A DNA stretch of 64,000 nt from Patescibacteria group bacterium (GCA_016861245.1 BOKZ01000001.1:13107-77106), one strand, 5' to 3'; numbered from the stretch's first letter, positions 6,068-36,111 are shown. A program made the numbers and translations. Notes: a model not told the origin generated them from the sequence alone.

Positions 6068-7745
6068 TTATTTCTTTGCCGGCTGGATGATAGTCGACTA
6101 GCCGCACTTGCAATGAACGACGGTTATTCCAAACGTTCTCTTCTAAAGACCCGAGACAATCGATTACTGGTACGTCGCCAAAAAGTTCGTGAGTGTTGAT
6201 CATGTTAAAACCGATAATATCAAAACTGACCTCGCCGATCCTTCCGATCGTTTTAATATGATTTTGTTTGCGACCGAGTTTTTTGAGAGGCTCTATCTGC
6301 ACATTCTGGATAATGAACAACGGTTGTGGGTTCTGCAAGCCAAACGGTTCAAGTTGTTTAATACGACGCGCCGTTTCTAACGTTACTTCATCTGACTGCA
6401 AGATCGCATCGGCGCTGAAACTTGCCAATAAGTCTTGCTCGGAAAGCTGTTGGCTTGCGTGTTCTTTGATCGCGTCAACAAACTTCGTGTAGTTCTCCTT
6501 TTTTAACGCAAGCCCAGCTGCGGTCCGATGACCGCCGAAGCGTTCGAGCAGCGACGCTTGTGAAGTTAGGCCGTCGATTAATGAGTAGTTATCGCCTGAG
6601 CGGCCACTACCGGAATACTGTCCGTCGCTATAACTCAATACAACTACCGGACGGTTGTGTTGTTGGCAGATTTTACCAGCGGTAAGTCCAAGTAGCCCGG
6701 TGGGCCAAGACTCACCGCTTACGACAAAAAATTTATCGCTTGGGTCGTTTTGAAGGAATAACTCCTTCTCAACTAAGAGATACAACTCATTAACTAGGTC
6801 TTGCCGCTCTTTATTGAAGCGTTCGATCGTTCGAGCAAGCTTAAGTGCTTCGCGTGGATCCTCGGTCCTGAGTAAATCGTAAACAATTCGGTTATCACTG
6901 AGCCTGCCGCCAGCGTTAAATCTAGGACCGATCGCATACCCGATCGATGACGCATCGACGTTTTTCGGTTCGATCCCCGCTACTTCTAATAATGCCTTTA
7001 ACCCAACTCGCCGATTTTTTTGCAACACAATCAGGCCGTAATGAACCAGTGTTCGATTTTCGTCTCGCATTACCATCATGTCGGCTACCGTCGAGATGGC
7101 AACGATATCGAGTAACCATTTACGAAACGATTCTGGGAGACTGTCTGGAAAATCCTTCGAGAGTGCTTGGATAAACTTGTAAGCAACGGCGCAGCCGCAG
7201 ATATGTGGGAACGGGTACTTCGATGCCGGGACGAACGGATCGACAACCGCATCGGCCGGGGGGATTTCAGCTGCTGGCAAGTGATGATCTAGAATAATTA
7301 CTTGTAAACCTAACTCTTTTGCTCTTAAAACTTCTTTCGTTGATGTGATGCCGGTATCAACAGTTACGAGTACATCTGAGTGCTTTGCTGCCTGTTCAAC
7401 ATCCTCGAGTCGTAAACCGTACCCGGTTTCACGTGTCGGCAGCACGACCGTGTGCGGTACACCGAGTCGGTCGAATGAGAGTGAGAGGAGCGCCGCTGCC
7501 GGTGTTCCGTCGGCGTCGTAATCGCCGAATATTGTAACGTGTTTTTTTGCTCGTACTACTTCAGAGAAAACCCGACAAGCTTTTTCCATATCAGGTAATA
7601 GAAACGGATCGTGGAGATGACGCTCAAAATCGGGCGATAATTCTTCGGGGCGAATGGATCTAATGGCGCATAAATGCTCGACGATGTCATTGCTCTCACG
7701 TTGTCTCACCTGCCAACGCGGGCGTGAACTAGTAGAAATAGACAT
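6045..7745 (-). CDS. recJ: Single-stranded-DNA-specific exonuclease RecJ
   Basis: DHH motif (IILDHH), DHHA1 GGHRTAAG, length and domain order typical of RecJ. Confidence 0.85.
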   Translation of the reverse strand: MSISTSSRPRWQVRQRESNDIVEHLCAIRSIRPEELSPDFERHLHDPFLLPDMEKACRVFSEVVRAKKHVTIFGDYDADGTPAAALLSLSFDRLGVPHTVVLPTRETGYGLRLEDVEQAAKHSDVLVTVDTGITSTKEVLRAKELGLQVIILDHHLPAAEIPPADAVVDPFVPASKYPFPHICGCAVAYKFIQALSKDFPDSLPESFRKWLLDIVAISTVADMMVMRDENRTLVHYGLIVLQKNRRVGLKALLEVAGIEPKNVDASSIGYAIGPRFNAGGRLSDNRIVYDLLRTEDPREALKLARTIERFNKERQDLVNELYLLVEKELFLQNDPSDKFFVVSGESWPTGLLGLTAGKICQQHNRPVVVLSYSDGQYSGSGRSGDNYSLIDGLTSQASLLERFGGHRTAAGLALKKENYTKFVDAIKEHASQQLSEQDLLASFSADAILQSDEVTLETARRIKQLEPFGLQNPQPLFIIQNVQIEPLKKLGRKQNHIKTIGRIGEVSFDIIGFNMINTHELFGDVPVIDCLGSLEENVWNNRRSLQVRLVDYHPAGKEIIEFHGKK

Positions 7746-8514
7746 TGCCTGGGACTCTTAGATCAATTCGCTCTTTTATTTGTGCTGACCGTTCATCGAG
7801 TACCTTACTCAGAACCGTTACCTGAGACTCAACAGGATAGCTTGTAGTAAATAGCACAGTTATCGGACTTCCTGGGAACGTTTTATCAGCACGAGCGCTA
7901 ATTACAGCCCCAAATTGATAGAACGACTCTGTAATAAAAAGTTGAGAAACGGTAATGCCGTCTTTCAATAGCAACGCTACCAGCTGGTCGTAAGCCGCAA
8001 CCGTCTCCTCGCTCGTAACTTCTTCGCCGATCGAAACCGCCTTGCCTGCTCGGTCTTCCAGTATCGGCAGTTTTTCGTTAGTAAACTCAGTAAAGATGTA
8101 ACCAGATTTATCTAATAAGTACGATTTATCGCCTGTTTTCCACACGAACCGCGCCTCACGAGCTTTTGCTTCGCACCGTACTGTAGCCGGCAACCCACGA
8201 GTGCAACTAAACGACTCAAGTATCGGATATTCCTCGAGTGCCTTTCGCGCTAGTGTCTGTATTTTATTTGAAAATATTGACTGGCCAATTAGTGACTGTG
8301 CTAGTTCTGTAATTGCAATGGACGGACTATTGCGTACGTCAACGTGTTTTATCTGGAAAAAAGGTAAACGGCTAATTAACAGTCCGCCAACAAGCACAAC
8401 ACCTACAAATAATAACGGCCGGATCGGCCGATTGCTGCCGTTCGGTTGTGAGGCCTTCGGCGGTTTATAGATTGCATTAAAGACTTTCGGCGTTGGTGCT
8501 GTGTTTCTCATCAT
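7729..8514 (-). CDS. ftsQ: Cell division protein FtsQ/DivIB-like (POTRA domain)
   Basis: Single N-terminal TM helix, POTRA-like segment (SYLLDKSGYIF), position at the distal end of the dcw cluster. Confidence 0.6.
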   Translation of the reverse strand: MMRNTAPTPKVFNAIYKPPKASQPNGSNRPIRPLLFVGVVLVGGLLISRLPFFQIKHVDVRNSPSIAITELAQSLIGQSIFSNKIQTLARKALEEYPILESFSCTRGLPATVRCEAKAREARFVWKTGDKSYLLDKSGYIFTEFTNEKLPILEDRAGKAVSIGEEVTSEETVAAYDQLVALLLKDGITVSQLFITESFYQFGAVISARADKTFPGSPITVLFTTSYPVESQVTVLSKVLDERSAQIKERIDLRVPGNVYFY

Positions 8515-9472
8515 CCTCAGGCCAGTATCCCAGATAGGTTAGTCGAACATCAAGCGTGTTAGATCCGTTACTGAGAGTTCTCGAAACTTGTTCGATAAAA
8601 CTCCTTATCGCCGAACCATTAACGTCTTTTTTTCGTTGGATTGTGAGAATATTTGGGTTTTTCAGTGAGTATCTAACGCCGTCCGGCGGCTTCGGTAAGC
8701 GCAAGTCTCTGCGCTCAAATAGAGGAATGTCAGAGATGAAATTCGAAAATGTCACTCCTCGGTTTGCGTTAACTACCGATCGAAGCTGCTTAAGACGTTG
8801 AAATATCTCATATTGAGATAATTGAGCAAGCTGTAACCGTGCGGTTAGAATGATCGGCTGGAAACCTGCCTCAGAGGTAAAAATGCGCTGATACGGCGTA
8901 TCGGGTAGTTCGGTAATCGGTACGGTCATCGTTTTACCGCCGTCAGTGTCAGGAATAAATACCACAATTTCCTTTAGGCATTGGTTACGAAGCGTCTTGC
9001 CGTCGTACGCGGCGTTAGTTGCTAGCGCACCGCCTATTGAGCCTGGAATTGCTGTTAGAAATTCGATCCCACCGTACGAGCGGTTCGCCGCCGACATTAC
9101 CAACGTCGAGTTACTAACACCGCTATCAACGACAACTTGTCGCGACTCCTCCGCAAAAAATATCGAGTCGGCTTGGTTACTGATAATCAGTCCTGGAAAT
9201 CCGACGTCGCTCGGCAAGCAAGCCGTAGCGCCGGCAACCACTTGGTACGGCATTTTTAGTTCGATCGCCAACTTTGCAACGTCGACGAGTTGCTGGCTGG
9301 TAGTAGTTGTCACAAAATACTCAACCACTCCCCCGATTCCGATTGGCAGTAGTTCTGCTAACGAGCGGTTCACCGCCACGTGCTGATCGCCGACGATCTC
9401 AGAAAATCGCCGCCGATGCTCAGCTGTCGCTAGTGAGTTTGTCGTAAATTTTGTAGACATCCCCAGCTCCAA
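8477..9472 (-). CDS. Divergent MurB-like protein (UDP-N-acetylenolpyruvoylglucosamine reductase family)
   Basis: IPGSIGGALATNAAYDGK resembles the MurB IPGTVGGA..NAGAYG motif, but the GGGSN FAD-binding motif is absent. Sits at the murB/ddl position of the dcw cluster. A canonical murB is at 41957-42892. Confidence 0.55.
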   Translation of the reverse strand: MELGMSTKFTTNSLATAEHRRRFSEIVGDQHVAVNRSLAELLPIGIGGVVEYFVTTTTSQQLVDVAKLAIELKMPYQVVAGATACLPSDVGFPGLIISNQADSIFFAEESRQVVVDSGVSNSTLVMSAANRSYGGIEFLTAIPGSIGGALATNAAYDGKTLRNQCLKEIVVFIPDTDGGKTMTVPITELPDTPYQRIFTSEAGFQPIILTARLQLAQLSQYEIFQRLKQLRSVVNANRGVTFSNFISDIPLFERRDLRLPKPPDGVRYSLKNPNILTIQRKKDVNGSAIRSFIEQVSRTLSNGSNTLDVRLTYLGYWPEDDEKHSTNAESL

Positions 9473-10829
9473 CTAGTAGTACAACATCGTCCGGCGTTAT
9501 CAAGCTCCGCAGGAACGTCGCTGCTTCATCTAGTGAGGAGCGGTACTCGACATCTGGCTTACTCTTTTTCACTGCATCGATTAAATCCTTAATCGTAACG
9601 TAGCCGCTCTTCTCGCGAGCGGACGCCCAAATATTCAGGAGAATTAGTTTATCAGGTGACTGTAAGCTCTTCGCAAACTCGTGTAATAACTTTCCAGTTC
9701 GACTATAGGTATGCGGCTGAAAGACGGCCACTAAGCGCTTTCCGGGAAACCGTGCTCGCGTCGCCTCAAATAAGTACTCAAGCGCGCTTGGATGATGCGC
9801 GTAATCGTCGAAAATCTGAGCGCCGTTGAAGGTTCCAAGCAACTCAAACCGACGTTTCGGTCCGGAAAATTTACCAAGCGCTTTAATCGCGATTTTTTCT
9901 GAGACGCCAAGTTTTACCGCCATAACGAACGCCGCAGTTGTATTGAGGGCGTTGTGTTTGCCGGGCATCTTACAATGAAATGGTCCGATCTTGTGATCTT
10001 CAGTTTTCAGCCAGAACTCCGATTGAGTATCAGTCTCAGAGTAATCGATTACCTGGTAACTCGCTCCTGGTAGAAATCCGTAGGTTTCACACCCCCGGTC
10101 AACTAAACGCCCAACCAACCGACGAACAAGCGGCCAGTCGACGCAAGCAACGATCGTTCCGTTGCGCGGCAATTTGGTAGTTAGTTTGTAGAAGGCATCA
10201 TAGACTTGGGTGGCGCTTTGAAACACGTCGGGATGATCCAGCTCAATACTAGTAATAATAACGTGTTGGAGAGGATAGTCTAAGAATTTTGGTTGGAGTT
10301 CGGTATCCGATTTTTTATACTCGTCGGCTTCAACGATGAAATGACTGCCGTCGCCAAGGTGCGAGCTACCTTCAAGACCAGGAATATCGCTTGTGCCGAT
10401 CGCGTAGCTCGGTGAAAATCCGGCTTCTTTTAATGCGAACGCTAGCATCGAGGTAGTGGTTGTTTTACCGTGAACGCCCGCCACTCCAACGCCCTCGTAG
10501 CGACTGATAATTTTACCTAACATTTCAGATTGTGGGATCGTCGAGATTCGAGCAGATTTGGCGGCTTTTACTTCTGGGTTTTGTAGCCCGTACGCCGCGC
10601 TAACGATCACCAACTCTGGTTTAGTTTGAGTGATATGGTTCGCGTCAAAGCCTGAGAAATACTCAATACCGTGCTCGGCTAAAAGCGAGTCCGTAATAAA
10701 GACTTCTTCAACGTCGCTGCCAGTCACTTCGTAGCCTAACTGCTTTGCGATTACCGCCAACCCAGTCATCGCCACACCTTTAATACCGATAAAATACAAC
10801 GACTTCGGCTCGCCTTTAGTTTTTGCCAT
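9420..10829 (-). CDS. murC: UDP-N-acetylmuramate--L-alanine ligase
   Basis: YFIGIKGVAMTGLA N-terminus, GVAGVHGKTTTTSM P-loop, Mur ligase C-terminal domain. Confidence 0.85.
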   Translation of the reverse strand: MAKTKGEPKSLYFIGIKGVAMTGLAVIAKQLGYEVTGSDVEEVFITDSLLAEHGIEYFSGFDANHITQTKPELVIVSAAYGLQNPEVKAAKSARISTIPQSEMLGKIISRYEGVGVAGVHGKTTTTSMLAFALKEAGFSPSYAIGTSDIPGLEGSSHLGDGSHFIVEADEYKKSDTELQPKFLDYPLQHVIITSIELDHPDVFQSATQVYDAFYKLTTKLPRNGTIVACVDWPLVRRLVGRLVDRGCETYGFLPGASYQVIDYSETDTQSEFWLKTEDHKIGPFHCKMPGKHNALNTTAAFVMAVKLGVSEKIAIKALGKFSGPKRRFELLGTFNGAQIFDDYAHHPSALEYLFEATRARFPGKRLVAVFQPHTYSRTGKLLHEFAKSLQSPDKLILLNIWASAREKSGYVTIKDLIDAVKKSKPDVEYRSSLDEAATFLRSLITPDDVVLLVGAGDVYKIYDKLTSDS

Positions 10830-11928
10830 CGATCTCCTTAATTATTTCTGAAATTGTTGCTTGTGTTTTAAAGTACTCCTTTAGTCGATTGCCGATTTCC
10901 TGGAGTTTCTCTGGGTTTGAGATTAGTTTAAGTATGTCTTGAACAAAAACTTCCGTCGAGAGTTGATACTCCTGTCTCACAATTGCTGCGTTAGCCGAGT
11001 CTAACCTCAGCGCGTTTTCGTACTGGTGATTAGCCGCTGCAGTTGGTAGCGGCACGAGATACATCGCTTTCGCAAAGAGTGCTGCCTCAGCGATTGTGGT
11101 AGCGCTAGAACGCGCAACAACCAAATCAGCGCTCTGGAAGTACAGCGGCAATTCTCTATCGATAAAACTATACGGCTTATAATGCGAACGTTGTGAGGTG
11201 TTTAGAGACTCTTTAATCTTTATAAACTCTTGGTACTCGCGTTCTCCGGTTAAGTGAACCACATCCAACGTTTCTAATAATTTAGGCAGAGAGCTTCGAA
11301 TAAACGAATTTATGGCCGCGGAACCCTGGCTTCCAGGCAACACGAGTAGTAGTGGTCGTGATTTTTTCGGTGCTTTTAACGTGGCTGCCCGTCGTAAAAC
11401 AGCACGAACTGGAATACCGACCTGACGGTAACGATCGTTTCTATTCGGATAGCTCTCGAGCCCAAACGCAGTTAGTACTCGATCGGCAACCGCGGCGCTT
11501 AAACGATTTGTCATTCCCATAACTGCGTCGGATTCGTGAACAATAATTCGACAACCCAGTAACTTCGCGGCGAAGACAACCGGAAGGGCAACGTAACCGC
11601 CCTTACTAAATACTGTCCCAACTTTATTACGCCGAATAACTTTGATTGACTGAAAAAAACCGATCACAACCTTCACAGTATCAACAATATTTGAGACAAG
11701 CGATTTAAATGTTGAGTATCGTCTCCATTTTCCAGCTTGAATCGTTTCGAGTTTCCATCCCAAATTAGTTACTACCCGTTCTTCGAGACTCTCGGCAGAG
11801 CCGATGAATATAAACTCTCGCTTCTGTTGAGCCAATTCCTCAGCGACAGCAACAAGCGGAAAAACGTGACCACCCGTGCCACCACCGACCAGCGCAATTA
11901 CGTTATTATTTTGTTTCTCTTGAAGCAT
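10816..11928 (-). CDS. murG: UDP-N-acetylglucosamine--N-acetylmuramyl-(pentapeptide) pyrophosphoryl-undecaprenol GlcNAc transferase
   Basis: GGGTGGHVFP N-terminal motif, GT28 architecture, dcw context. Confidence 0.85.
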   Translation of the reverse strand: MLQEKQNNNVIALVGGGTGGHVFPLVAVAEELAQQKREFIFIGSAESLEERVVTNLGWKLETIQAGKWRRYSTFKSLVSNIVDTVKVVIGFFQSIKVIRRNKVGTVFSKGGYVALPVVFAAKLLGCRIIVHESDAVMGMTNRLSAAVADRVLTAFGLESYPNRNDRYRQVGIPVRAVLRRAATLKAPKKSRPLLLVLPGSQGSAAINSFIRSSLPKLLETLDVVHLTGEREYQEFIKIKESLNTSQRSHYKPYSFIDRELPLYFQSADLVVARSSATTIAEAALFAKAMYLVPLPTAAANHQYENALRLDSANAAIVRQEYQLSTEVFVQDILKLISNPEKLQEIGNRLKEYFKTQATISEIIKEIDGKN

Positions 11929-13036
11929 TAGTTAAAACACCCAACATTGCTAAGCTCACAATTAACGAAGTGCCACCGTAACTTACAAACGGAAGCGGAA
12001 TTCCGGCGAGCGGTAACAGCGCGAGCATCCCTCCTATATTTATCAGGGTCTGAAGAATAATCAAGGTAGAAATACCTACTGCCAAGTAACAAACGAACCG
12101 GCTATTGGCCCTTTGAGCGATTACTAGACCACGCCAAGCCAACAATACGTACGCAAGCAATAGCGCCGCTGCGCGGATAAAGCCGAGCTCCTCAGCGATA
12201 ACTGCGAAAATAGAATCGGTGTGCGCCTCGGGTAAATACGAATACTTACTAGTCCCTTGGCCGAAACCCACACCCCACAAGCCGCCGCTTCCTACGGCGA
12301 TCAAGGCTTGCTGGCTGTGATAGCCTCGATTCTGCGAATCAAACTCGGCGTTATTTTGTCGTTGATCCTGATACGACTGTAATCGGTTTAGTCGGTACGG
12401 TGTGGCAAAAATTAGCAGCAGCACCGCCCCAATCGCCAGTAATGTAATCGCCCCAACCTGCCAGACTTTGGCTTTGGCGACAAAGAAAATGACTACAGCA
12501 CTAACAAGCAGTACTACAGCCGTATCGAGATCTCGGCCGAGCGCTCCAACTAGTAACGCGATCATGGCCAGCAATAGCAGAAAGGGGATGAATCCTTTCT
12601 GGACGCTGCTAACGGCGTCGCCTTTCGAGGCAAACCAAGCCGAAAAATAAATAACAAGAAAAAGCTTAGCAACTTCAGACGGCTGGAATGAAAAACCACC
12701 GAACCCGACCCATCGGTATACACCAGCCGTTTCGCCGCCGATACCCGGCAGGAAAACCAGAATAAGTAGTATCAACGTTGCCCACAAAAAAGAAGCGCGC
12801 CTTTCGTAAAGTCGCTCCAGCGGTAATCGTAAAAAATAAAAGAACCCAACCAGACCAATTCCGAATGCGATCAACTGTCGGATAAAAAAATGATACGCAT
12901 CGGCGTATTTATCTGCTGCGGTTATCTGTGAGGCGGAAAGCACCATCACTAACCCAAGAACTGAGAGGCCGAAACCGATGATCGGAATAATCGGATCAAT
13001 CTTTTTTCGAAGTTTATAGTTACCGCTTTGCGACAT
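11906..13036 (-). CDS. ftsW: Peptidoglycan glycosyltransferase FtsW (SEDS family)
   Basis: About 10 TM helices, SEDS family similarity, located between murD and murG. Confidence 0.8.
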   Translation of the reverse strand: MSQSGNYKLRKKIDPIIPIIGFGLSVLGLVMVLSASQITAADKYADAYHFFIRQLIAFGIGLVGFFYFLRLPLERLYERRASFLWATLILLILVFLPGIGGETAGVYRWVGFGGFSFQPSEVAKLFLVIYFSAWFASKGDAVSSVQKGFIPFLLLLAMIALLVGALGRDLDTAVVLLVSAVVIFFVAKAKVWQVGAITLLAIGAVLLLIFATPYRLNRLQSYQDQRQNNAEFDSQNRGYHSQQALIAVGSGGLWGVGFGQGTSKYSYLPEAHTDSIFAVIAEELGFIRAAALLLAYVLLAWRGLVIAQRANSRFVCYLAVGISTLIILQTLINIGGMLALLPLAGIPLPFVSYGGTSLIVSLAMLGVLTNASRETK

Positions 13037-14411
13037 CTTGAAGGCGACTTCTAGTTAATAGAGTGAATTGTGTCCCACGGTCGGCGGCATCGATGAACAT
13101 ATCCTTACTCGCACAGGCTGGCGAAAGTAAAATCGTGTCGCCTGAGACAGCAATCTCAGTAGCTCGATTAACTACTTGCTCCAAGGTGTCCAATTTCTCG
13201 ACAATTCCCGAATAGTTTATTTCTTGTAACGATTTCTCAATCCGCGGCGCTTCTTGACCAATTAACAGCACGGCCTTTACTTTCCGACGGATAATTGCAT
13301 GAGCGAGTTCGGTAAAGTCCATGCCTTTAGACGAGCCCCCTGCTAGTAGGATTGTCGGCTGATCAAAAGCGGAGAGCGCCGCAATTGTCGCGTCGGGTGC
13401 GGTTGCGTAGCTGTCGTCGATAACTGTTATACCGTTAAAGACTCCGATATTTTCCATTCGGTGCGGCAGCGGCTTGAAGGTTTTTAGGCCGGGAATAACA
13501 TCTTCCGACTTAATACCGCACTGTACGGCTGTCACTGCTGCAAGTGCCGCATCGAGAAGTAAGTGATCCCCTTTAATTCCGGCTTTAGCTAATGAGATTT
13601 TCCGGCCTTGAAACACAAGTTCATCACCCGTAAGAACTGCAAATTCGGCCGATCTCCCAACGCCGTATTGTGTCGCTTTTGAGCTCTCCGCCATCTTTGT
13701 TGAAGTCGGGCTATCAGCAGCGTACACAACAACATCGTCAGCAGTCTGAAATGCCACTAACTGTCGTTTAGCTTCGATATAATCTTCCAGCGATCGATGG
13801 TAGTTAGGGCTACGCGCCGAGAGCGGCTGCAGATGTTCGGACGTCACTGGCAGTAACACGGCGACGTGCGGACTGTGTGAGATATCTTCGAGCTGAAAGC
13901 TGGATAATTCCATAACTACCCACGTCTCGTCGTCGATCTGATCGATGCTCTCAAAAATTGAATTGCCGATATTACCTGCCAGCTGTACCTTTTTTGAACC
14001 AGCTTTAAGTATCGAATGAATCATCGTGGAGGTCGTGCCTTTGCCTTTGGTTCCGGTGACGCCGATTACCTGTTTACCGTAATATTCTAGAAACAGATCG
14101 ACGGCTGACGATCTAATCGGAGATGGTTGCGACGAACCGATCGCGCGCTCCACGTCAATTACTGGCATCCCCGGCGTCCTGAAGACGTAATCAAATTGAG
14201 TTAGCTCGCTTAACGCATCCTCGCCGATCCGCAATCCGACCCCTTCTATCCGCTCAAGTCGCTCGATGTTTGACGGCTCACTATTTTGCTCGCAAATCAC
14301 CACATCGGCACCGTGTTTCACAAAAAACGGAATGAGGCTTAGGTTTTCTTTACCGGCACCGAGCAAACCAATTTTCTTCGAGCGAAATTTCTCCCAATCT
14401 ATCCGCGACAT
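13020..14411 (-). CDS. murD: UDP-N-acetylmuramoylalanine--D-glutamate ligase
   Basis: GLLGAGKEN Rossmann N-terminus, GVTGTKGKGTTSTM P-loop, dcw position. Confidence 0.8.
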   Translation of the reverse strand: MSRIDWEKFRSKKIGLLGAGKENLSLIPFFVKHGADVVICEQNSEPSNIERLERIEGVGLRIGEDALSELTQFDYVFRTPGMPVIDVERAIGSSQPSPIRSSAVDLFLEYYGKQVIGVTGTKGKGTTSTMIHSILKAGSKKVQLAGNIGNSIFESIDQIDDETWVVMELSSFQLEDISHSPHVAVLLPVTSEHLQPLSARSPNYHRSLEDYIEAKRQLVAFQTADDVVVYAADSPTSTKMAESSKATQYGVGRSAEFAVLTGDELVFQGRKISLAKAGIKGDHLLLDAALAAVTAVQCGIKSEDVIPGLKTFKPLPHRMENIGVFNGITVIDDSYATAPDATIAALSAFDQPTILLAGGSSKGMDFTELAHAIIRRKVKAVLLIGQEAPRIEKSLQEINYSGIVEKLDTLEQVVNRATEIAVSGDTILLSPACASKDMFIDAADRGTQFTLLTRSRLQDVAKR

Positions 14412-14443
14412 ACCTTAAGTATGCCGCAACACCTGGAGATTTT

Positions 14444-15466
14444 CTAGCGGCTTACGAGATAGACAAACAGTCCGAGCATCGCCGCTACCGCCGAGACTAC
14501 CCAAAAACGCATTGTGATTTTCGGCTCTTCCCAACCGATTGCCTGATAGTGGTGATGGATCGGGGCAGACAAAAATACTTTTTTACCGTTTCGCAGCTTC
14601 TTGGAAGCGATTTGGATAACGGCCGAAAAACCTTCGACGTACAACATCAGTGCGATTATCGGCAAGATCAAAACTGTGTCGGTAAGAAATGCTAAAATTC
14701 CAAGCGTCATGCCGAGCGCCATCGCACCAGTATCCCCCATAAAGAATCGGGCCGGATAAATATTGAACCACAAAAACGCCAGTAACGATCCAAGAATCGT
14801 TCCACAAAACGCTGCTAATTCTGTCTTACCTTGTATAAGCGCGATCATCCCGAACGCCGCAAACGAGCTCGCCATCATACCAGCGAGTAGTCCGTCCAGA
14901 CCGTCTGCTTCGTTGGCGCTGAAGGTTGTAAAGACAATTACCAGAATAAATAACGGAATATACCAGGCGCCGATCTCGACCGGTCCGATTCCGGGGATAG
15001 AGAGCACGTTCCAGCCAAGCTTGTAATAAAACCACCAAGCACCAACCATCGCGATTAACGCGTAAATAATCAGCTTCCAACGAAACCGTAGCCCGCCGCG
15101 ATTCGGCCCGATGCCGTTAATATTCATAATATCGTCGATCGCCCCAACAATGCCGGTGGCGACAAGAGCAAAGAGCGGCAACCATGTTTGAGCGCGCGAT
15201 AAGTTCATTAATAATGTTACTACTGCTGTCGTTATCCAAATTAACAGCCCTCCCATCGTTGGAGTGTTTTCCTTATGCTTATGCAGCGCGTAAAAAATTG
15301 GCGCTTTCTTCTCGTCAAAACCCGTCTGTCTAATTTTTTTACCTAAACGGTTTTTGTATAAGAAATCGGTAAACAACGGCGTCCAAAGAAACGCGACCAA
15401 AAATGATAGACTCGCCAGCCAGAAAGTTTTCGCTAACGCAAAATGCGAGGCTTCAAGCAGAGACAT
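14444..15466 (-). CDS. mraY: Phospho-N-acetylmuramoyl-pentapeptide transferase
   Basis: Polytopic membrane protein with MraY-like DDxxN-type loops, HHH motif region, dcw position. Confidence 0.85.
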   Translation of the reverse strand: MSLLEASHFALAKTFWLASLSFLVAFLWTPLFTDFLYKNRLGKKIRQTGFDEKKAPIFYALHKHKENTPTMGGLLIWITTAVVTLLMNLSRAQTWLPLFALVATGIVGAIDDIMNINGIGPNRGGLRFRWKLIIYALIAMVGAWWFYYKLGWNVLSIPGIGPVEIGAWYIPLFILVIVFTTFSANEADGLDGLLAGMMASSFAAFGMIALIQGKTELAAFCGTILGSLLAFLWFNIYPARFFMGDTGAMALGMTLGILAFLTDTVLILPIIALMLYVEGFSAVIQIASKKLRNGKKVFLSAPIHHHYQAIGWEEPKITMRFWVVSAVAAMLGLFVYLVSR

Positions 15467-16523
15467 GTTCCAAAGCTGAAATTATCTTTTCCATATGAAT
15501 TGATCGTGACCCCTTCACCAAGATACTATCTCCTTTTTTCAGATAAGAAAAGATCTCTTTAGCGGCCTGTTCACTGGTTTCAAATCGCGCGGCTGGTTGG
15601 TATTGATCGGTATGTTCACCAATGCCGATCACAACGTCCGCAATTGTGTGAGCCAAATCCCCTGTGTGCCTGTGAAGGATTTTCTCAGTATCACCGAGCT
15701 CGCGCATCGTCCCAAGAATCGCCACTTTACGACCCGGCATCTTTTTTAATCGATTAAGCGCCGCTTCCATTGAGGCGGGGTTCGCGTTATACGTATCGTC
15801 TAATACTAGCCAATCGCCGATCCGTCGCTCGGAAAACCGCTGCGGCGGCAATTTCATCTGCGTAAGCGAAGTTTCGATGTTCTCACTTGGAACATCGAAA
15901 AATTTTCCAACTAATCGAGCAAAGCCAACTGAGAGCTCTTCGTTTGGTAAGTCAGCTTCAATAACTGTTTGGGCGATAGTACGCTTTCTATGTTGAGCGT
16001 AATACGGATCTCGCTTGTTCAAAAACACAACTCCATCTTTAGGCACGGCTGCGACAAGCGCCCCTTCGTCTTCAGCTACCGCGTCGAGCGAGCCGTAATT
16101 CATTACGTGCGCCGGTGCAACAGTTGTCAAAACCGCAATGTGAGGCGGTAGCTTATTGGTTAGTTTCTTTATATCATCTGGCTGATCGGTGCCGTACTCC
16201 AACACGACGTACTTCGGCAGGGACGTAAATGAACGTACCCAAGCTTGTATAAGGATAATCGGCCACTGCCAACTAATTGATTGGCGGTGAAAATCTATCT
16301 TGAATTCCAGAATCGAAAGCGGCACGCCGAGATACGTATTCAAGTTTCCAAACCCGATTAATACGTTATTCTTGAAATGGTCAGACAGTACCGCTCCGAT
16401 CGCGTATTTAGTCGAGGTTTTAGCGATCCCGCCACCGATAGCAATAACGGTCGTATCCGTGCTTTGAACTCGGCGCAGCGCGCAGCGCCACAAAAATTCG
16501 TCTCTCCAAGCTTTCATGGGCAT
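15453..16523 (-). CDS. murF: UDP-MurNAc-pentapeptide synthetase MurF (short form lacking N-terminal domain)
   Basis: LVLDDTYNANPASM and LVKGSRS C-terminal motifs are typical of MurF. AIGGGIAKTSTK P-loop. Only 356 aa. No murE is present in the cluster. Confidence 0.7.
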   Translation of the reverse strand: MPMKAWRDEFLWRCALRRVQSTDTTVIAIGGGIAKTSTKYAIGAVLSDHFKNNVLIGFGNLNTYLGVPLSILEFKIDFHRQSISWQWPIILIQAWVRSFTSLPKYVVLEYGTDQPDDIKKLTNKLPPHIAVLTTVAPAHVMNYGSLDAVAEDEGALVAAVPKDGVVFLNKRDPYYAQHRKRTIAQTVIEADLPNEELSVGFARLVGKFFDVPSENIETSLTQMKLPPQRFSERRIGDWLVLDDTYNANPASMEAALNRLKKMPGRKVAILGTMRELGDTEKILHRHTGDLAHTIADVVIGIGEHTDQYQPAARFETSEQAAKEIFSYLKKGDSILVKGSRSIHMEKIISALEHVSA

Positions 16524-16533
16524 AGTGTATCAG

Positions 16534-18237
16534 TTATCGCAGTTTGTAGTAGTTCGTAATCCAGTTAGCTAGCTCACCGAAGATCGGAGCGGCTGAAGAT
16601 TCGGCGAACTTTACAGTTTTTGGGTTGTCGAGACGTACGACCATAACGAACTTTGGGTCGTCCGCCGGGAATAGTCCAGCGAAGTTACCGATATGTCTAT
16701 CTTCAGCGTAACCGCCTTGTGGGTCGGCCACTTGGGCCGTACCGGTCTTACCTCCAACCCTAATACCCTCGACTTTTGCTCTCTTACCGTGCCCAAGCTC
16801 CACTACAGACACTAACATTTCTCTAATTTTCTTAGCTGTTTCTTCACTGATTACCCGAGTGCCCGCTTTCGCACTGTACGGCGTTACAGCTGTGCCACGA
16901 ATCGTTTGCGCAATTAAATGCGGCGAGACAGTTACTCCGTTATTAGCGATAACTGCGTACGCCGTAGCTAATTGCAGCGGCGTGACTGAGATGCCTTGAC
17001 CGTACGCGGCAGTCGCGCTCAGTGTGTCGTTCCATTCCTTAGCGTCACGAAGCACCCCTGGCTGTTCGCCCACTAATTCGACACCGGTTTTGGCGCCGTA
17101 ACCAAATTTTTCCAAAAATTCACGCTGTTTTTCTTTGCCGATTTTTTGCGAGAGCCAGACCATCGCAACGTTATCGGAGTTTTCCAGTACTTGGGTCATC
17201 GTCTCTCTCCCGTATACCTTATCCTCCGCATTACGGATCTCAAACCCACCGACTTTTACCGATCCGCCAAAGACTTCCGTAGTGTCTGGTTGTACTAGAC
17301 CCATCTCAATCGCCATCGCCATAGTAATTGGTTTCATTACACTACCCGGTTCGTACGGTAAACTAGCGCCTGCTGGTAAGAAATTACGTTGAGCCTCGCC
17401 AGTAACCTCGTTGAAGATGTTTGGATCAAACGTCGGGTAGCCGGCCATCGCCAGTATTGCACCAGTTTTGGGATCGAGAATAACGATCGAGCCGCCTTCG
17501 GCTTGAAAACGTTCGGTCGCCTCCTTTAGCTTGGCTTCAACGGTAAATTGTAAATTGTAATCGATCGTTAACACGATATCGGCACCGGGCTCAGCACGCT
17601 TTGCACCTAATATATCGATCAATCTTCCGAGTGAATCCTTCTTAGCTTTTTCCGATCCAGAGACACCACGCAACACCTGATCGTTTGTTGCTTCAACGCC
17701 GTATTTACCTTGCCCATCTGAACCAACGAATCCCAAAAGTTGCGGCGCGATCGCCGATCCTTCCGGATACACTCGTACAAATTCTGGGCGGACGTACACG
17801 CCGACGTAGTTCTTTTTAAGTAATGCGTCCGCTTGAGCCGGAGTGAGATTGCGTGCGAGCGCGGGAATATACACTTTGTCGTTATTAATTTTTTCAAAAA
17901 TTTCTTCCTTTTTTAGCCCAATTTTTTCTTCTGCAATTAACTCGGCTAGTTTTTGTTTATTCTTGACTTGGCGAGGCGCGATAAATAATTGGTAACGCTC
18001 CTCGCTAGCCGCTAGTGTATAAAGTTTTCCGTCTCGATCCTTGGCTAGGATAACGCCGCGCTGAGCTTGTTCGGTTGCGGTACTGGTCGACTGAAGCTCC
18101 GCCGCTTCAACGTACTGCTCGTGGTCGAGAACTTGATAATTGAATAACTTGAATAAAAAATATCCACCTGCAAACGCCGCCAATAACAGTAGAAGCGTTG
18201 TTCGGATATGCAGCACCCGATCGCCCATCTGCGTCAC
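16534..18237 (-). CDS. ftsI: Class B penicillin-binding protein FtsI (transpeptidase)
   Basis: N-terminal TM helix, PBP dimerisation domain, SxxK/SDN/KTGT motifs (ENSDNVAM, GKTGTAQ). Confidence 0.85.
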   Translation of the reverse strand: MTQMGDRVLHIRTTLLLLLAAFAGGYFLFKLFNYQVLDHEQYVEAAELQSTSTATEQAQRGVILAKDRDGKLYTLAASEERYQLFIAPRQVKNKQKLAELIAEEKIGLKKEEIFEKINNDKVYIPALARNLTPAQADALLKKNYVGVYVRPEFVRVYPEGSAIAPQLLGFVGSDGQGKYGVEATNDQVLRGVSGSEKAKKDSLGRLIDILGAKRAEPGADIVLTIDYNLQFTVEAKLKEATERFQAEGGSIVILDPKTGAILAMAGYPTFDPNIFNEVTGEAQRNFLPAGASLPYEPGSVMKPITMAMAIEMGLVQPDTTEVFGGSVKVGGFEIRNAEDKVYGRETMTQVLENSDNVAMVWLSQKIGKEKQREFLEKFGYGAKTGVELVGEQPGVLRDAKEWNDTLSATAAYGQGISVTPLQLATAYAVIANNGVTVSPHLIAQTIRGTAVTPYSAKAGTRVISEETAKKIREMLVSVVELGHGKRAKVEGIRVGGKTGTAQVADPQGGYAEDRHIGNFAGLFPADDPKFVMVVRLDNPKTVKFAESSAAPIFGELANWITNYYKLR

Positions 18238-18599
18238 GGTGTCGGTGTTACAGTAATTGATTCAGTCGCGCCGGAAATCGGCACCAACCCTTGCGACGAC
18301 GCAGACTGCTGGAGGTTCTGCAGCGAACGAATACGACTATCGTTAACCTTCAACGTCGTCATTTCTTTTGTTAGCGAGTCCTTCGTGTCTTCAAGTTTGC
18401 GAAGCTCGATTAAGCCGTCAGATCCCTGAGCGGATTGGATTAAATAAAATAACGAAAAAACTGCCAGGAGCGTTAAAATAAAATACCGAGCCGCTGTTGG
18501 ACCAATACTAAAAACTCCTCCTGATTTGTAGACTTGTCTGCGCTGAATTCGGTTGTGTTGCATTTTCCTCCTTGAATTTCCCTGATTGCCAGGCACCAA
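18234..18599 (-). CDS. Cell division protein FtsL-like
   Basis: Small bitopic protein (TM plus coiled coil) between rsmH and ftsI. Start probably the internal Met (MQHNRI). Confidence 0.5.
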   Translation of the reverse strand: MVPGNQGNSRRKMQHNRIQRRQVYKSGGVFSIGPTAARYFILTLLAVFSLFYLIQSAQGSDGLIELRKLEDTKDSLTKEMTTLKVNDSRIRSLQNLQQSASSQGLVPISGATESITVTPTP

Positions 18600-18605
18600 T
18601 ATCGA

Positions 18606-19469
18606 TTATTCGATACTCGTGTCTGTCAGTCTCTTGCGCCCTGTGCGTAACTTTGCGCTCCGCGAGCTTGGGTTATTTTTAATCTCTTCCTGAGTCGGTT
18701 CGACCGGCTTTTTGGTTAACAATTCGTAATCGCTGCCACGAAAGAATTCTTTAACAATCTTATCTTCAAGCGAATGGAAACTAATGACAGCCAGCACCGA
18801 TCCTGGTCGCAATACCGATGACACAACTTCGAGTCCGCGCTTGATATTAACCAACTCGTCGTTAACGTGGATACGCAATGCCTGAAACAACGGTGCTAGT
18901 ACTTTCGGATTGTTAGTCCCGACGTATTCAACGAAATCTGTCGTGGTTCTAATCGGTCGGACACGTCGTTCGTTGACGATCTTAGCCGCAAGCTTTTTAG
19001 CGTACCGATCTTGAGCATATTCGCGAAACACTTGCTCGATCGCTGAAGCGCTGCTTTGTTGAAGAAACTGAGCGGCAGTCTGACCGGTAGTTTCAAATCG
19101 AAGATCTAATGGTTCGTTGCGCTGAAAGCTAAACCCACGCCACGAGCCAGTTAGTTGATCAGTCGACATACCAAGATCCAACACTGCACCGTCGAATTCG
19201 CGCTCTAATTGATCGCAATCGGCGTATTTTAAAACGTGGAACTCAAACCGATCGCCGTATTGCTTCGCAACTGCTTCAGCAAAAACCGTTACATTTTCGT
19301 CGCGATCCACCGCCACCACCCTCCCGTTGGGCGCCGATGTATCCAGTATCGCTCGCGCATGCCCGCCGCCGCCGAACGTTCCGTCTAGATACGTTTTGCC
19401 GGTTTCTGGCTGGAGCGCTGCGATCACTTCGTTGACGAGTACTGGTATGTGCTTTGACAGATTTTCCAT
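18606..19469 (-). CDS. rsmH: 16S rRNA m4C1402 methyltransferase RsmH (MraW)
   Basis: HIPVLVNEV..YLDGTFGGGGHA SAM-binding signature, mraZ-rsmH gene order. Confidence 0.9.
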   Translation of the reverse strand: MENLSKHIPVLVNEVIAALQPETGKTYLDGTFGGGGHARAILDTSAPNGRVVAVDRDENVTVFAEAVAKQYGDRFEFHVLKYADCDQLEREFDGAVLDLGMSTDQLTGSWRGFSFQRNEPLDLRFETTGQTAAQFLQQSSASAIEQVFREYAQDRYAKKLAAKIVNERRVRPIRTTTDFVEYVGTNNPKVLAPLFQALRIHVNDELVNIKRGLEVVSSVLRPGSVLAVISFHSLEDKIVKEFFRGSDYELLTKKPVEPTQEEIKNNPSSRSAKLRTGRKRLTDTSIE

Positions 19470-19745
19470 AGCTTTAGATTGTTTACACTCTTACGATTTG
19501 TTTGTGGTCGAAATAAATTGTTAGGTACATTTTTTGGCCGAGATGCAGGGGACCGTAATACGGCTCGTCTGCCGGGCAACGCGTCCCCTCTTAAAAAGAA
19601 GAGTAGGACAAAAACCCAACATCCCTCCCTAAAACCGAAGTTTAGGGCCCCAATACCTTGTTAATAAACTTAACCTGGCGGGCAACCCAATCACGATTTC
19701 CCCCGCATCTGGTCACACAAAATTGATTTTGAAACAAACTCGACA

Positions 19746-20177
19746 TCAGATCTCCCATTCTGTGAGTTTTTCGGCGTTATCGGACGCGTTCGCTTCAGCA
19801 TCCTTGCTGTAACGCGCCCAGCCTTGTTTGTCCCAGATCTCGACACGATTCAAGACACCAGTCATTACAACGGCGTCTTTCAGTCCAGCGTATTCCCGAA
19901 GATACCCGGGTAGTAACGCTCGTCCCTGCTTGTCGATCTCCACCTCCATCGCTCCCGATAGCATTAAACGACTAAATGCTCGAGCGCTGGAACTGGAGAC
20001 CGGCAAATTTGCTAATTTATCGGTCATCTTAATCCACTCTTCCTTCGGATAAACAAACAGACACGGATCCAGACCCTTGGTAATAATCGCCGAAGAGCCC
20101 AGTTCCGCGCGGAATTTCACCGGCACAGCAATCCGACCTTTTTGGTCCAAATTGTGATGATATTCGCCGATGAACAT
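19746..20177 (-). CDS. mraZ: Transcriptional regulator MraZ
   Basis: MFIGEYHHNLDQKGRIAVPVKFR N-terminus and duplicated MraZ domains. First gene of the dcw cluster. Confidence 0.9.
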   Translation of the reverse strand: MFIGEYHHNLDQKGRIAVPVKFRAELGSSAIITKGLDPCLFVYPKEEWIKMTDKLANLPVSSSSARAFSRLMLSGAMEVEIDKQGRALLPGYLREYAGLKDAVVMTGVLNRVEIWDKQGWARYSKDAEANASDNAEKLTEWEI

Positions 20178-22041: not shown

Positions 22042-23067
22042 TTAACGATAGAAATCGAATACTGTCGAGAGACTGCTCTCGAGCGGTCCGAGTAAACTCG
22101 AATAATTCATGCCAATATACATAAACGCGGATAAGAGCAGAAATACAAAACCAATCAAAGTAATCGCGCTCTTGGCTTTACCAAATATCGCCATTACCGT
22201 TCCGAGTAGTAATGTGGCAGCAGTTGTTAACCAACCGACCGAGCGAATTACCTGGTATAGATCTTCGCCGATCATTTCTCTAAAGAGCGGCGTGCTAGCT
22301 AAGATTACGAATAAAATTGTGCCTAGAATAACCAACACTTCACCAATTACTGCTACGGCAGACGGATGCGGCGCTTGCTCTTGGACAGCCGGATCCATCG
22401 GCGGGCGCGGCTTGCCAATTGAGCTGTAGATATCCGTTACTGGACTAGCGGGCGTGGGCGTCGACGGAATTGGTGTTGGTGTAAATGCGGCTGGTTCAAC
22501 CTTTGGTGCGGGTTTTTCTTCTGGTTTTGTTATTTCTGTTCCTTTCTGGATCTCTGGCTCGGCTGGTTTATCTGGAGTAGGTGTTGGTTGAGTCTGCTCG
22601 TTAGACGCTGCGCTTGAACCGCTAGTTAGTCGCTCAATTTTTGCTTCCAGTGCCTGAATCTCGCCCGTCAGTGACTCGATCTGTTCCTGTAGACGCTCTG
22701 TATCTGGTGTAGCTGTCTGTACGTCTTCTGGCTTGAGCACTACTGGTTCGCTCGAAGACCCGGCAGGAGTCTCGGGCGTGGATACTGCGGATAGATCTGG
22801 TTTAACGCTCTCTTCGACTGTCGGCGCATCAACTTGTTCGGCTGGTTTATTAATGGAAATATTGCCGTCGTTTGCCGTTGTCGTCTCAAGCGTTGCAGGA
22901 TCAGCTTCTGGCTTTTGATCGGTTTTAACTTCAACCGATACTGCGTCTGTTTTATCTGTTTGATTAGCCTCTTTCGGTGAGACTGTTTTGTCGTTGATTG
23001 CTTCTGCTGGTGTTTTTGTATCGTCTGCCATTTTATTCAGTGTAACAAAAAGTCTAATCTCACCCAA
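22042..23067 (-). CDS. Hypothetical membrane protein with Pro/Thr/Glu-rich region and coiled coil
   Basis: Low-complexity PT-rich segment, coiled coil (QEQIESLTGEIQALEAKIERL), three C-terminal TM helices. Confidence 0.45.
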   Translation of the reverse strand: MGEIRLFVTLNKMADDTKTPAEAINDKTVSPKEANQTDKTDAVSVEVKTDQKPEADPATLETTTANDGNISINKPAEQVDAPTVEESVKPDLSAVSTPETPAGSSSEPVVLKPEDVQTATPDTERLQEQIESLTGEIQALEAKIERLTSGSSAASNEQTQPTPTPDKPAEPEIQKGTEITKPEEKPAPKVEPAAFTPTPIPSTPTPASPVTDIYSSIGKPRPPMDPAVQEQAPHPSAVAVIGEVLVILGTILFVILASTPLFREMIGEDLYQVIRSVGWLTTAATLLLGTVMAIFGKAKSAITLIGFVFLLLSAFMYIGMNYSSLLGPLESSLSTVFDFYR

Positions 23068-23092: not shown

Positions 23093-24187
23093 TTACCCAT
23101 AATAGCGCTTCGGCAGTGCCGTACCCAACCGAGTAATGATCTCATGATGTCGTAACGCACAGCGCTTAGCGATATCGGTAATTTTAATTGTTTTAGTTTC
23201 ACCGGCGCTGTTTTTCTGTGAGCCGATAATTACGACTTCGTCGCCGCGTTTTGCCGTAATGCCAGTAACATCGGCGATTATCATATTCATGCAAATCTGC
23301 CCGATCACCGGTACCTCGCTGCCCTGAATTAAAACCGTCAGTTTATCGCGCATCACTTGAGACAAGCCGTCTGCGTACCCGATCGCTATCACCGCAATTT
23401 TTGTGTCGCGTTTCGTCTTATATAGATGGCCGTAACTTACGCCTTCACCAGCTGCCACATCTTTAACTTGCATCACCACCGACTTACAAGTAAACGAACT
23501 TTCTAAACCAGGCAGAACTTCGTCGATACCGTACAACGCTAAGCCGATCCGAACGGCATCTAAATAGCCTTGCGGGAAGTTTGTCAGCGCGTAACTGCTA
23601 TCGAAGTGAATTGGCAGAAGCGGGATCTTGCCTTCGATATCGATCAAGATATCTTGAATAACCCGCAGTTGCTGCTCGTTCTTCTCGGCGCTTGATGCGT
23701 CCGCCAAATGCGAAAAAAGCGCCTCGACCCGGATGTTCGGATAACGTCGCTGGCCAAGAAGAAAATCGACGGTTTGTTCAGCGCTAAAACCCAGCCGGTT
23801 TAAACCAGTCTCCACTTTTAAGTGAACTGAGATTGTTTTTCCAAGACGTTCCGCTGCGCGCTGGTAGAGCGCAATCTGTTCAACGTCGTATAAACTAACT
23901 CGGTAACCTTCCTCGATTGCGTCGATTAATTCTTTCGTATCGAGGTAACCCAAAATTAAGATCGGCTTTTTCGAAACTCGACGGACGCGATCGGCTTCTT
24001 CAATGGATATCACTGCAAACATCTCAACATCTTTTTTATCGAGCGTCTCGACCACTTTTTCTAACCCGTGACCGTATGCGTTGCTTTTTACCACAGCGAT
24101 CACTCCAACGGTTTTGCCGATCTTCTGCTTAACACGATCAACATTTCGGCTAATCGCGCCTAAATCAACTTCAATCCACGCCTGCAT
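23093..24187 (-). CDS. alr: Alanine racemase
   Basis: PLP-binding motif AVVKSNAYGHG, TIM barrel plus C-terminal beta domain. Confidence 0.9.
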   Translation of the reverse strand: MQAWIEVDLGAISRNVDRVKQKIGKTVGVIAVVKSNAYGHGLEKVVETLDKKDVEMFAVISIEEADRVRRVSKKPILILGYLDTKELIDAIEEGYRVSLYDVEQIALYQRAAERLGKTISVHLKVETGLNRLGFSAEQTVDFLLGQRRYPNIRVEALFSHLADASSAEKNEQQLRVIQDILIDIEGKIPLLPIHFDSSYALTNFPQGYLDAVRIGLALYGIDEVLPGLESSFTCKSVVMQVKDVAAGEGVSYGHLYKTKRDTKIAVIAIGYADGLSQVMRDKLTVLIQGSEVPVIGQICMNMIIADVTGITAKRGDEVVIIGSQKNSAGETKTIKITDIAKRCALRHHEIITRLGTALPKRYYG

Positions 24188-25914: not shown

Positions 25915-25928
25915 TTAAACTCTTTATC

Positions 25929-26045
25929 TTGGCGTCGGCCTACTTTCCCGAGGGCTGTTAGCCCTGAGTATCATCGGCGCTGGCAGGCTTAACTTCTCTG
26001 TTCGAAATGGGAAGAGGTGTACCCCTGTCGCTCGAGACACCAAGA
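25929..26045 (-). rRNA. rrf: 5S ribosomal RNA
   Basis: The reverse complement reads CTTGGTGTC...CACCTCTTCCCATTTCGAACAGAGAAGTTAAGCCTGCCAGCGCCGATGATACTCAGGG...GACGCCAAG, which matches the 5S consensus helices. Confidence 0.75.
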
Positions 26046-26373: not shown

Positions 26374-26489
26374 TGCTCACCTCCATCCGAGAACGTTATA
26401 TTGTTGTGGTTTCCAAACCAAAGTCGAAGACAATTCAGGCGACGTTCCTTCTTTCCTGCGTAGAAATTACGCGCAGAAAAGAAGTAGTA

Positions 26490-29775
<3,286 letters not shown>

Positions 29776-30476: not shown

Positions 30477-30554
30477 CGTTCTATATAGAAGTATTTGCTC
30501 GTTTTGTTCAAGAATGCTTGAATAGAGCAACGCCCTATTGGGCGAGGTGACAGT

Positions 30555-31379: not shown

Positions 31380-31400
31380 CCCCTTCGGGGGTATTTTTTT
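31379..31400 (+). terminator. Rho-independent terminator
   Basis: CCCCTTCGGGGG hairpin followed by TATTTTTTT. Confidence 0.65.
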
Positions 31401-31507
31401 ACCTTAAAATAACGCCTCAACCTATTGATTTTCTGTTGCGGTTAAGGTATTATTCCCCGCGACTCAAAAAGAGTTGACCCGACTCGTCGGGAGGATCGAA
31501 CCTGAAC

Positions 31508-32683: not shown

Positions 32684-32763
32684 CGCTTCGGCGCATGGGC
32701 GGCACGCAGACAACTGCGAGCCGCCCTATTTTTTTACCCTCGTTTTTGCCACAATCCCCTCAA

Positions 32764-33627: not shown

Positions 33628-33634
33628 GCGATGC

Positions 33635-36104: not shown

Positions 36105-36111
36105 GAGAACT

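Follow-up and report, generated by a model that had tools for sequence, protein, structure and literature searches.

A predicted MurB pseudoenzyme and a two-domain MurF-like ligase in the division and cell wall operon of a Berkelbacteria-type bacterium

The DNA analysed here (the window) is a stretch of 64,000 nucleotides from a Patescibacteria group bacterium (GCA_016861245.1, BOKZ01000001.1:13107-77106). It carries the conserved division and cell wall (dcw) operon of a Berkelbacteria-type bacterium of the candidate phyla radiation (CPR; Patescibacteria) with a genome of about 0.7 Mb. Two of the peptidoglycan genes in this operon are unusual: the gene between murC and ftsQ encodes a MurB homologue that has lost the catalytic residues of MurB, and the gene between ftsI and mraY encodes a short MurF-like ligase without the N-terminal domain. 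We consider it probable that the murB slot holds a pseudoenzyme, that an active MurB is encoded separately, that the short ligase is a minimal and active MurF, and that murE and ddl, both absent from the operon, are encoded elsewhere in the genome. Both enzymes, MurB and MurF, are essential, almost universal and targets of antibiotics. A dead MurB that is selected across a lineage within the dcw operon suggests a non-catalytic structural or regulatory role of MurB in the Mur and divisome machinery, and a two-domain MurF helps to define the minimal functional core of a Mur ligase.

The MurB homologue between murC and ftsQ

The gene in the ancestral murB slot (minus strand) almost certainly spans 8477-9460 and not 8477-9472, as first proposed: the ATG at 9460, which gives a protein of 327 aa, has GGAG 6 nt upstream and is also the start used in public gene calls. 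It shares 41 nt with murC upstream and 38 nt with ftsQ downstream and is probably translationally coupled to both. The protein carries the motifs IPGSIGGALATNAAYDGK and has VAGATACL at the place of GxGSN, in agreement with the original prediction that it keeps an IPGSIGGA..NAAYDGK motif and lacks the GGGSN loop that binds flavin adenine dinucleotide (FAD). FAD_binding_4 is its sole domain match (43 bits), the MurB_C domain of Pfam finds no match in it, and its scores are below the NCBIfam cutoffs (83.5 bits against 259 for NF010480 and 54.9 bits against 144.5 for TIGR00179).

An AlphaFold2 model built from an 18-sequence alignment reached a predicted local distance difference test score (pLDDT) of 83.2 and a predicted template modelling score (pTM) of 0.83. 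The 18 best Foldseek matches of this model in PDB are all MurB; for S. aureus MurB (1hsk) the alignment covers 310 columns with an E-value of 6e-22 and template modelling (TM) scores of 0.78/0.84, and other PCMH flavoenzymes and oxidases reach a TM of only about 0.45. In the predicted structure, the protein is a full-length MurB homologue with a three-domain fold made up of two FAD-binding subdomains and a C-terminal substrate domain. It shares this fold and the glycine-rich motifs of the FAD domain with type II MurB (S. aureus-like, PDB 1HSK). An unrelated FAD oxidase is ruled out, since the full-length matches are MurB structures only, and the slot protein is a degenerate MurB relative, as the original prediction had proposed.

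The catalytic positions were assigned by alignment and are given in E. coli MurB numbering (Arg159, Ser229, Glu325). All three residues are kept in the canonical MurB of the window, in the in-cluster MurBs of the more distant outgroup loci L023 and L024 and in most other CPR MurBs aligned; the MurB-like protein of the window has Tyr, Val and Arg at these positions. Among its orthologues, Arg159 and Ser229 are replaced by assorted residues and Glu325 by Arg in 11 of 12, with a family-wide retention of 8%, 8% and 0%, respectively. In an alignment of 19 canonical MurBs, 33 columns of the FAD part and 17 of the C-terminal substrate part reach a conservation of 85% or more; the MurB-like proteins retain 65% of the former and 20% of the latter. 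None of them (0%) has N51, Y158, K164, K232, H288 or E325, and the glycine motifs (G14, G15, G57, G60, G103, E105, P111, G112, G115, G116 and A117) are retained at 92-100%; PG[ST]xGGA is kept, and G109 and G123 have mostly disappeared. The C-terminal domain is 20-30 residues shorter than that of canonical MurB and poorly conserved within the family, where only I289, Y309, L310 and G311 are invariant. Relative to MurB, the family has lost the GSxFKN, YRxS and KxHxN motifs together with Asn51; newly conserved are MSTK at the N-terminus and an acidic tail with YLGYWP[DE] at the C-terminus. It shares the murC-ftsQ slot with the in-cluster MurBs of L023 and L024. As far as can be judged from the sequence, the known MurB chemistry is not possible for this protein. 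Paralogue subfunctionalisation, as suggested initially, is too mild a description, because all three catalytic residues and most of the substrate-binding residues are gone; the protein is therefore either a pseudoenzyme or a neofunctionalised protein.

When the MurB-like family profile was searched against 1.84 billion representatives, 181 matches were obtained at E <= 1e-30. GSxFKN and KxHxN are both missing in 45 of the 49 top-scoring matches, and 37 of these 45 carry Arg at the Glu position, where it lies in the signature R-x-x-[YF]-[LIV]-G-Y-W-P-[DE] followed by the acidic tail; the MSTK start occurs in many family members. Within the 49 top-scoring matches, the family comprises about 45 clusters at 50% identity and extends down to approximately 33% identity. 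With the closest species-level relative as reference (L012, the DTUPAT3 metagenome-assembled genome, MAG), the ratio of nonsynonymous to synonymous substitution rates (dN/dS) is 0.070 (MurB-like gene) and 0.128 (short MurF gene), values that fall within the 0-0.19 of the neighbouring housekeeping genes, and both proteins keep their position and length across relatives down to 33-40% identity. This dN/dS and the deep conservation rule out a pseudogene, and the decay originally suggested does not apply to either of the two odd genes, both of which are under purifying selection (0.07 and 0.13). All in all, these features point to a MurB derivative that is under selection and presumably expressed, but catalytically dead.

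The textbook MurB reported earlier at 41957-42892 (minus strand) was confirmed. It lies 32 kb from the operon, matches FAD_binding_4 and MurB_C, passes both NCBIfam cutoffs (272 bits against 259 for NF010480 and 224 bits against 144.5 for TIGR00179), has R159, S229 and E325 as well as an intact GxGSN loop (GAGSN), and is presumably active. It represents a second group of MurBs (type B), in which over 120 clusters of homologues share 48-94% identity with it and bear the names Berkelbacteria, Patescibacteria or Saccharimonadales; across the clade, its identity is 48-62%. In a neighbour-joining tree the type B MurBs are monophyletic with 94% bootstrap support, and the MurB-like proteins group beside the in-cluster 'type A' CPR MurBs. 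The phylogeny thus does not bear out the idea of two recent duplicates: the two MurBs of the window belong to separate lineages and are 20% identical, which rules out a recent tandem-type duplication. In another species, a type B MurB (P0233) and a short MurF (P0029) are encoded on one 46.7-kb contig, and P0233 has the same neighbours as the canonical murB of the window, namely a VTT-domain protein and a divergently transcribed NAGPA-domain protein. Most simply, a second MurB outside the cluster is an old feature of the clade, and the positional orthologue in the operon then lost catalysis and was retained. The divergent neighbour in the window (42936-44351, plus strand) combines NAGPA (phosphodiester glycosidase) and CarboxypepD_reg domains, and the NAGPA and VTT neighbours recur in the relative L031.

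A search of GTDB species genomes with the short-MurF family recovered 16 related loci; the labels found among relatives are Candidatus Berkelbacteria, Patescibacteria group and Saccharibacteria/Saccharimonadales MAGs. The full gene order is found in ten distinct genomes that span the murC-ftsQ slot (L010-L013, L015, L017, L020, L022, L025 and L027). It begins with alr, a gene of unknown function, a class II aminoacyl-tRNA synthetase gene, mraZ, rsmH, ftsL, ftsI and the short MurF gene, continues with mraY, murD, ftsW, murG, murC, the MurB-like gene, ftsQ, recJ and radA, and persists even at 40-50% short-MurF identity. In L018 (MAG ERP119705_co24_1046; 12544-14799), murC is followed by ftsQ with a gap of 36 bp, and the MurB-like gene is cleanly lost. 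In L023 and L024, a canonical MurB occupies the slot, and L024 has ddl between murB and ftsQ. At locus L114, which has the order murC-[P0007]-ftsQ-recJ-radA-PBP1a, the protein in the same slot, P0007 (7729-8610), has lost the catalytic triad, yet its MurB_C domain is still detectable. These loci therefore form a graded series from an active in-cluster MurB to the MurB-like family. Partial loss of catalytic residues was also seen in two further CPR MurBs (P0013 and P0356), and MurB degeneration in CPR bacteria may be gradual or recurrent.

The short MurF-like ligase and the absence of murE and ddl

The 356-aa ligase (15453-16523, minus strand) matches only PF08245 and PF02875 (Mur_ligase_M and Mur_ligase_C), i.e. 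the central ATPase and C-terminal domains; PF01225, the UDP-binding N-terminal domain, finds no match in it, and its score on TIGR01143 (213.6 bits) is below the cutoff of 288.6. Residue 20 aligns with residue 96 of E. coli MurF and residue 13 with residue 71 of T. maritima MurF, and the whole N-terminal domain is therefore missing, as had been proposed. Since the ATG lies 10 nt past the ftsI stop, no N-terminal domain is hidden by a frameshift. An insert of about 30 aa follows GVPLSIL relative to canonical MurF. The AlphaFold2 model has a pLDDT of 93.3, and its ten best PDB matches are all MurF, with a TM of 0.80 on query length.

The short MurF proteins form a family of about 45 clusters with lengths of 349-382 aa and 40-98% identity, separated by a gap from ordinary MurFs, which reach 36% identity at most. 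K35 and T36 of the P-loop, GNLN, E109, H139, R229, DDxYNxxP, GxMxELG and KGS are invariant in the family. The position of the carbamylated lysine (K202 of E. coli MurF, equivalent to MurD K198 and MurE K224) varies within the family: the window protein and its nearer relatives have Glu, whose carboxylate could perhaps replace the carbamate, and the more distant half has Lys. Its best matches in sequence and structure are MurF (PDB 4QF5, 3ZL8 and 1GG4), with which the short ligase shares the motifs DDxYNANP, GxMxELG and KGSR and the position between ftsI and mraY; it differs in the missing N-terminal domain, the insert described above, the loss of some 60 aa, the sequence A-K-T in the P-loop, the Glu at the carbamyl-Lys position and the sub-cutoff score. 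On the basis of its motifs, the short ligase is most likely an active minimal MurF that adds D-Ala-D-Ala. Activity is suggested because the catalytic motifs are all conserved, and D-Ala-D-Ala addition because the C-terminal motifs are of the MurF type, because of the place of the gene in the operon and because of the neighbouring alr gene (23093-24187, minus strand; Ala_racemase_N and Ala_racemase_C), which lies just upstream of the operon and occupies the same place in L010, L012, L015, L017 and L022. The alr product, a predicted alanine racemase, would supply D-Ala.

No MurE or Ddl homologue was found in the 64-kb window by a six-frame phmmer --max search with E. coli MurE and DdlB (from NC_000913.3), which matched MurC and MurD only. 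The original observation that the cluster lacks both genes is thereby confirmed, and neither gene occurs in the cluster or within 10 kb of it in the ten full-order relatives. The protein encoded between alr and the class II aminoacyl-tRNA synthetase gene (22042-23067, minus strand; 341 aa, function unknown) keeps its position across the clade. It evolves fast (dN/dS 0.19; 53-118 bits to distant orthologues) and has only weak coiled-coil and transmembrane-like Pfam matches; as a hidden Ddl it is ruled out, since it shows no ATP-grasp signal and no similarity to E. coli DdlB.

Among the matches, many further MurFs of 385-437 aa also lack PF01225. On two unrelated CPR contigs, L028 (a noisy assembly with fragmented genes) and L032, ftsI is followed by an N-terminal-less MurF without murE, and a metagenome search with a Ddl alignment, which gave mostly non-CPR loci among the matches listed, included two CPR-like loci (L037 and L043) with the order alr-ddl-MurF (406-409 aa)-mraY, again without murE. 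The MurFs of these four loci have 391-437 aa and lack the N-terminal domain. Because four other CPR-type loci show both features, the loss of the MurF N-terminal domain and an operon without murE look like broader CPR traits that are less special to the window. We consider it most likely that murE and ddl are encoded elsewhere in the genome, because alr adjoins the operon, the MurF C-terminal motifs are intact, two penicillin-binding proteins (PBPs) and a YkuD protein are present, and murB is itself dispersed.

Proposed roles and alternative explanations

Based on these observations, we propose the following probable scenario, in which (i) the slot gene at 8477-9460 would descend from an in-cluster MurB, with the fold and the glycine-rich FAD cradle kept; (ii) the loss of the residues known to catalyse the reaction and of nearly all that bind enolpyruvyl-UDP-GlcNAc would have turned its product into a pseudoenzyme; (iii) UDP-MurNAc synthesis would be carried out by the separate canonical MurB encoded at 41957-42892; (iv) the short ligase, reduced to the central ATPase and C-terminal domain, would add D-Ala-D-Ala to the UDP-MurNAc-tripeptide; (v) murE and ddl, which would lie outside the operon in all clade members, are assumed to be elsewhere in the genome, as is the active murB; and (vi) the dead copy would serve as a non-catalytic binding, scaffolding or regulatory partner of the cytoplasmic Mur and divisome machinery. 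MurB is normally monomeric. A scaffold role is suggested by the strict linkage and coupling to murC and ftsQ, by surface-type motifs (the Arg and the aromatic-acidic tail) and by MurC-MurB fusions in other bacteria. Such natural fusions are found in Verrucomicrobia (PMC10214165), which makes a physical association of MurC and MurB plausible. The situation resembles that of prozymes, such as the partners of S-adenosylmethionine decarboxylase and deoxyhypusine synthase in trypanosomatids (PMC5201418, PMC3663545), in that a dead paralogue is kept under selection beside an active one of the same pathway. In contrast to prozymes, nothing here points to binding or activation of the active MurB by the dead one, and the two copies, only 20% identical, come from different MurB lineages.

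Several points weigh against this scenario. The Asn of GxGSN (Asn51) is kept by none of the MurB-like proteins, so that FAD binding is uncertain, and the deep nodes that place the MurB-like proteins with the in-cluster MurBs are weakly supported. At least one relative (L018) does without the MurB-like gene, which is thus not essential in every member of the group. In the short MurF, some 60 aa of an antiparallel-sheet subdomain are missing in addition to the UDP-binding domain, and its P-loop reads A-K-T rather than G-K-T; its substrate could be different from that of a normal MurF. Finally, the location of murE and ddl elsewhere in the genome is an assumption.

A neofunctionalised, FAD-dependent oxidoreductase that acts on another, probably anionic, substrate in envelope synthesis by means of the conserved Arg is an unlikely but serious alternative to a pseudoenzyme. 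It would account for the near-complete retention of the glycine motifs in the FAD domain, for the specific Glu-to-Arg change that is conserved in 37 of the 45 family clusters and for the strong purifying selection. However, the loss of Asn51 from the FAD pyrophosphate loop in all members is difficult to reconcile with a flavoenzyme, and a C-terminal substrate domain that is little conserved within the family and shortened by 20-30 residues is unlike a defined new active site. We find it hardly credible that the reading frame is a relic maintained for operon architecture, i.e. for translational coupling or ftsQ expression, and that its protein has no function. The overlaps with both neighbours (41 nt and 38 nt) and the clean loss in L018 would fit such a relic, and Real and Henriques reportedly found in 2006 that the position of murB in the B. 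subtilis dcw cluster matters. Yet a purely cis-acting role would not constrain the amino acid sequence to a dN/dS of 0.07, with protein motifs kept across about 45 clusters to approximately 33% identity, and the predicted fold is confident. That the dead MurB supplies the lost domain of the short MurF in trans was also considered and is unlikely: L018 has a short MurF without a MurB-like gene, CPR MurFs without the N-terminal domain exist in the absence of a MurB-like gene, and the dead MurB itself lacks the UDP-sugar-binding residues.

For the short ligase, the alternative is that the clade truly lacks MurE and Ddl and that the two-domain enzyme joins a different or preformed (scavenged) peptide to UDP-MurNAc-L-Ala-D-Glu, which we regard as improbable. 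Both genes are missing from the window and, in 16 related genomes, from the 10 kb around the cluster; the P-loop of the ligase is altered, and its UDP-binding domain and a further subdomain have been lost; and other CPR-type loci have ftsI or ddl followed by an N-terminal-less MurF without murE. On the other hand, the window covers only about 9% of a genome of approximately 685 kb, and the active murB outside the cluster demonstrates that the pathway is dispersed. The adjacent alr and the intact MurF C-terminal motifs fit normal D-Ala-D-Ala addition, and the outgroup L024 keeps ddl in its cluster. PBPs and YkuD-type L,D-transpeptidases, both present here, need a diamino acid at position 3. Slightly more improbable still is a combined version, in which the clade has no MurE or Ddl, completes the stem peptide in a non-canonical manner with its two-domain ligase (for instance from a scavenged or preformed peptide) and uses the dead MurB as a dedicated non-catalytic subunit of the rewired pathway. 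Should murE and ddl be missing from the whole genome, the clade would make its peptidoglycan precursors by a non-canonical route.

Operon organisation, annotation and other features of the window

Gene identities were assigned from Pfam and NCBIfam profile matches; from 7.7 to 20.2 kb, the minus strand encodes all open reading frames (ORFs). They support the gene order claimed originally, mraZ-rsmH-ftsL-ftsI-[356-aa MurF-like]-mraY-murD-ftsW-murG-murC-[MurB-like]-ftsQ, followed by recJ and radA. The operon starts with mraZ (19746-20177; PF02381 MraZ, E 1.6e-39), rsmH (mraW), which encodes a 16S rRNA methyltransferase (18606-19469; PF01795, E 4e-75), and a gene for an FtsL-like small division protein (18234-18599), whose match to NF053549 FtsL_Actino (26 bits, E 6e-6) is under the cutoff and whose position is kept in all relatives. 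Next come ftsI, encoding a class B PBP (16534-18237; PBP_dimer and Transpeptidase, E 7e-80), and, beyond the short MurF gene, mraY (14444-15466; Glycos_transf_4 and MraY_sig1), murD (13020-14411; TIGR01087, 327 bits against a cutoff of 212), ftsW (11906-13036; FTSW_RODA_SPOVE, E 2e-95), murG (10816-11928; N-terminal and C-terminal Glyco_transf_28 domains) and murC (9420-10829; TIGR01082, 408 bits against a cutoff of 335). The last division gene, downstream of the MurB-like gene, is ftsQ/divIB-like (7729-8514; FtsQ_DivIB_C, 23 bits against a cutoff of 21) and keeps its synteny. Directly downstream of the canonical murB, a YkuD-type L,D-transpeptidase is encoded (41429-41941, minus strand; PF03734, E 2e-15). 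A scan for promoters and terminators gave counts at chance level.

The order mraZ-rsmH-ftsL-ftsI ... mraY-murD-ftsW-murG-murC ... ftsQ is that of the canonical E. coli-type dcw cluster. In contrast to the latter, murE, ddl, ftsA and ftsZ are absent from the cluster described here, a murB-derived gene lies within it (E. coli murB stands elsewhere), and recJ and radA come after ftsQ. Several Logan contigs from independent assemblies, an NCBI contig of 685,065 bp and a JGI contig of 670,539 bp carry exactly these proteins in the same arrangement. Mis-assembly within the cluster, which had been named as a possible objection, is thus ruled out, and the proposed reduced genome with a separate canonical MurB is consistent with the contig size of about 685 kb.

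By descent, the parts of this operon belong to known families (MurB, MurF and the dcw cluster); the MurB-like protein fails the catalytic and hidden Markov model criteria for MurB, and the short ligase fails the domain and cutoff criteria for MurF with its catalytic core kept. We found nothing relevant in the literature on peptidoglycan genes of Berkelbacteria or CPR bacteria, murE loss or a MurB pseudoenzyme, and came across no description of a minimal MurF of this kind. In public annotation, JGI names the dead copy as active MurB, and NCBI names the short ligase 'cyanophycin synthetase' or 'hypothetical protein'. Metabolic reconstructions of CPR bacteria could therefore miscount the MurB and MurF steps.

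The rRNA genes of the window are all on the minus strand. The 23S rRNA gene (26484-29743) has 3260 nt against a model of 2925 positions, corresponding to one or more insertions of approximately 335 nt in total; rRNA insertions are known in CPR bacteria (PMC11270868). The 5S rRNA gene (25927-26044) adjoins the 23S rRNA gene, and the 16S rRNA gene (45274-46725) is unlinked, lying about 15.5 kb away with protein genes between them. The unlinked 16S and 23S rRNA genes fit a CPR genome. A compact block for nucleotide metabolism and repair at 30039-38627 encodes dUTPase, Fpg, thymidylate synthase, dihydrofolate reductase, dCMP deaminase and a cytidylyltransferase-like protein; the ORFs at 30555-31379, 31508-32683 and 33635-34516 have no Pfam match. 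An ORF at 56225-64000 (plus strand) runs off the window end and encodes at least 2591 aa without a Pfam match at E <= 0.001. Probable surface proteins are a 578-aa protein without a Pfam match (47162-48898, plus strand) and a 1045-aa protein with beta-helix and Big_7 domains (49959-53096, minus strand).

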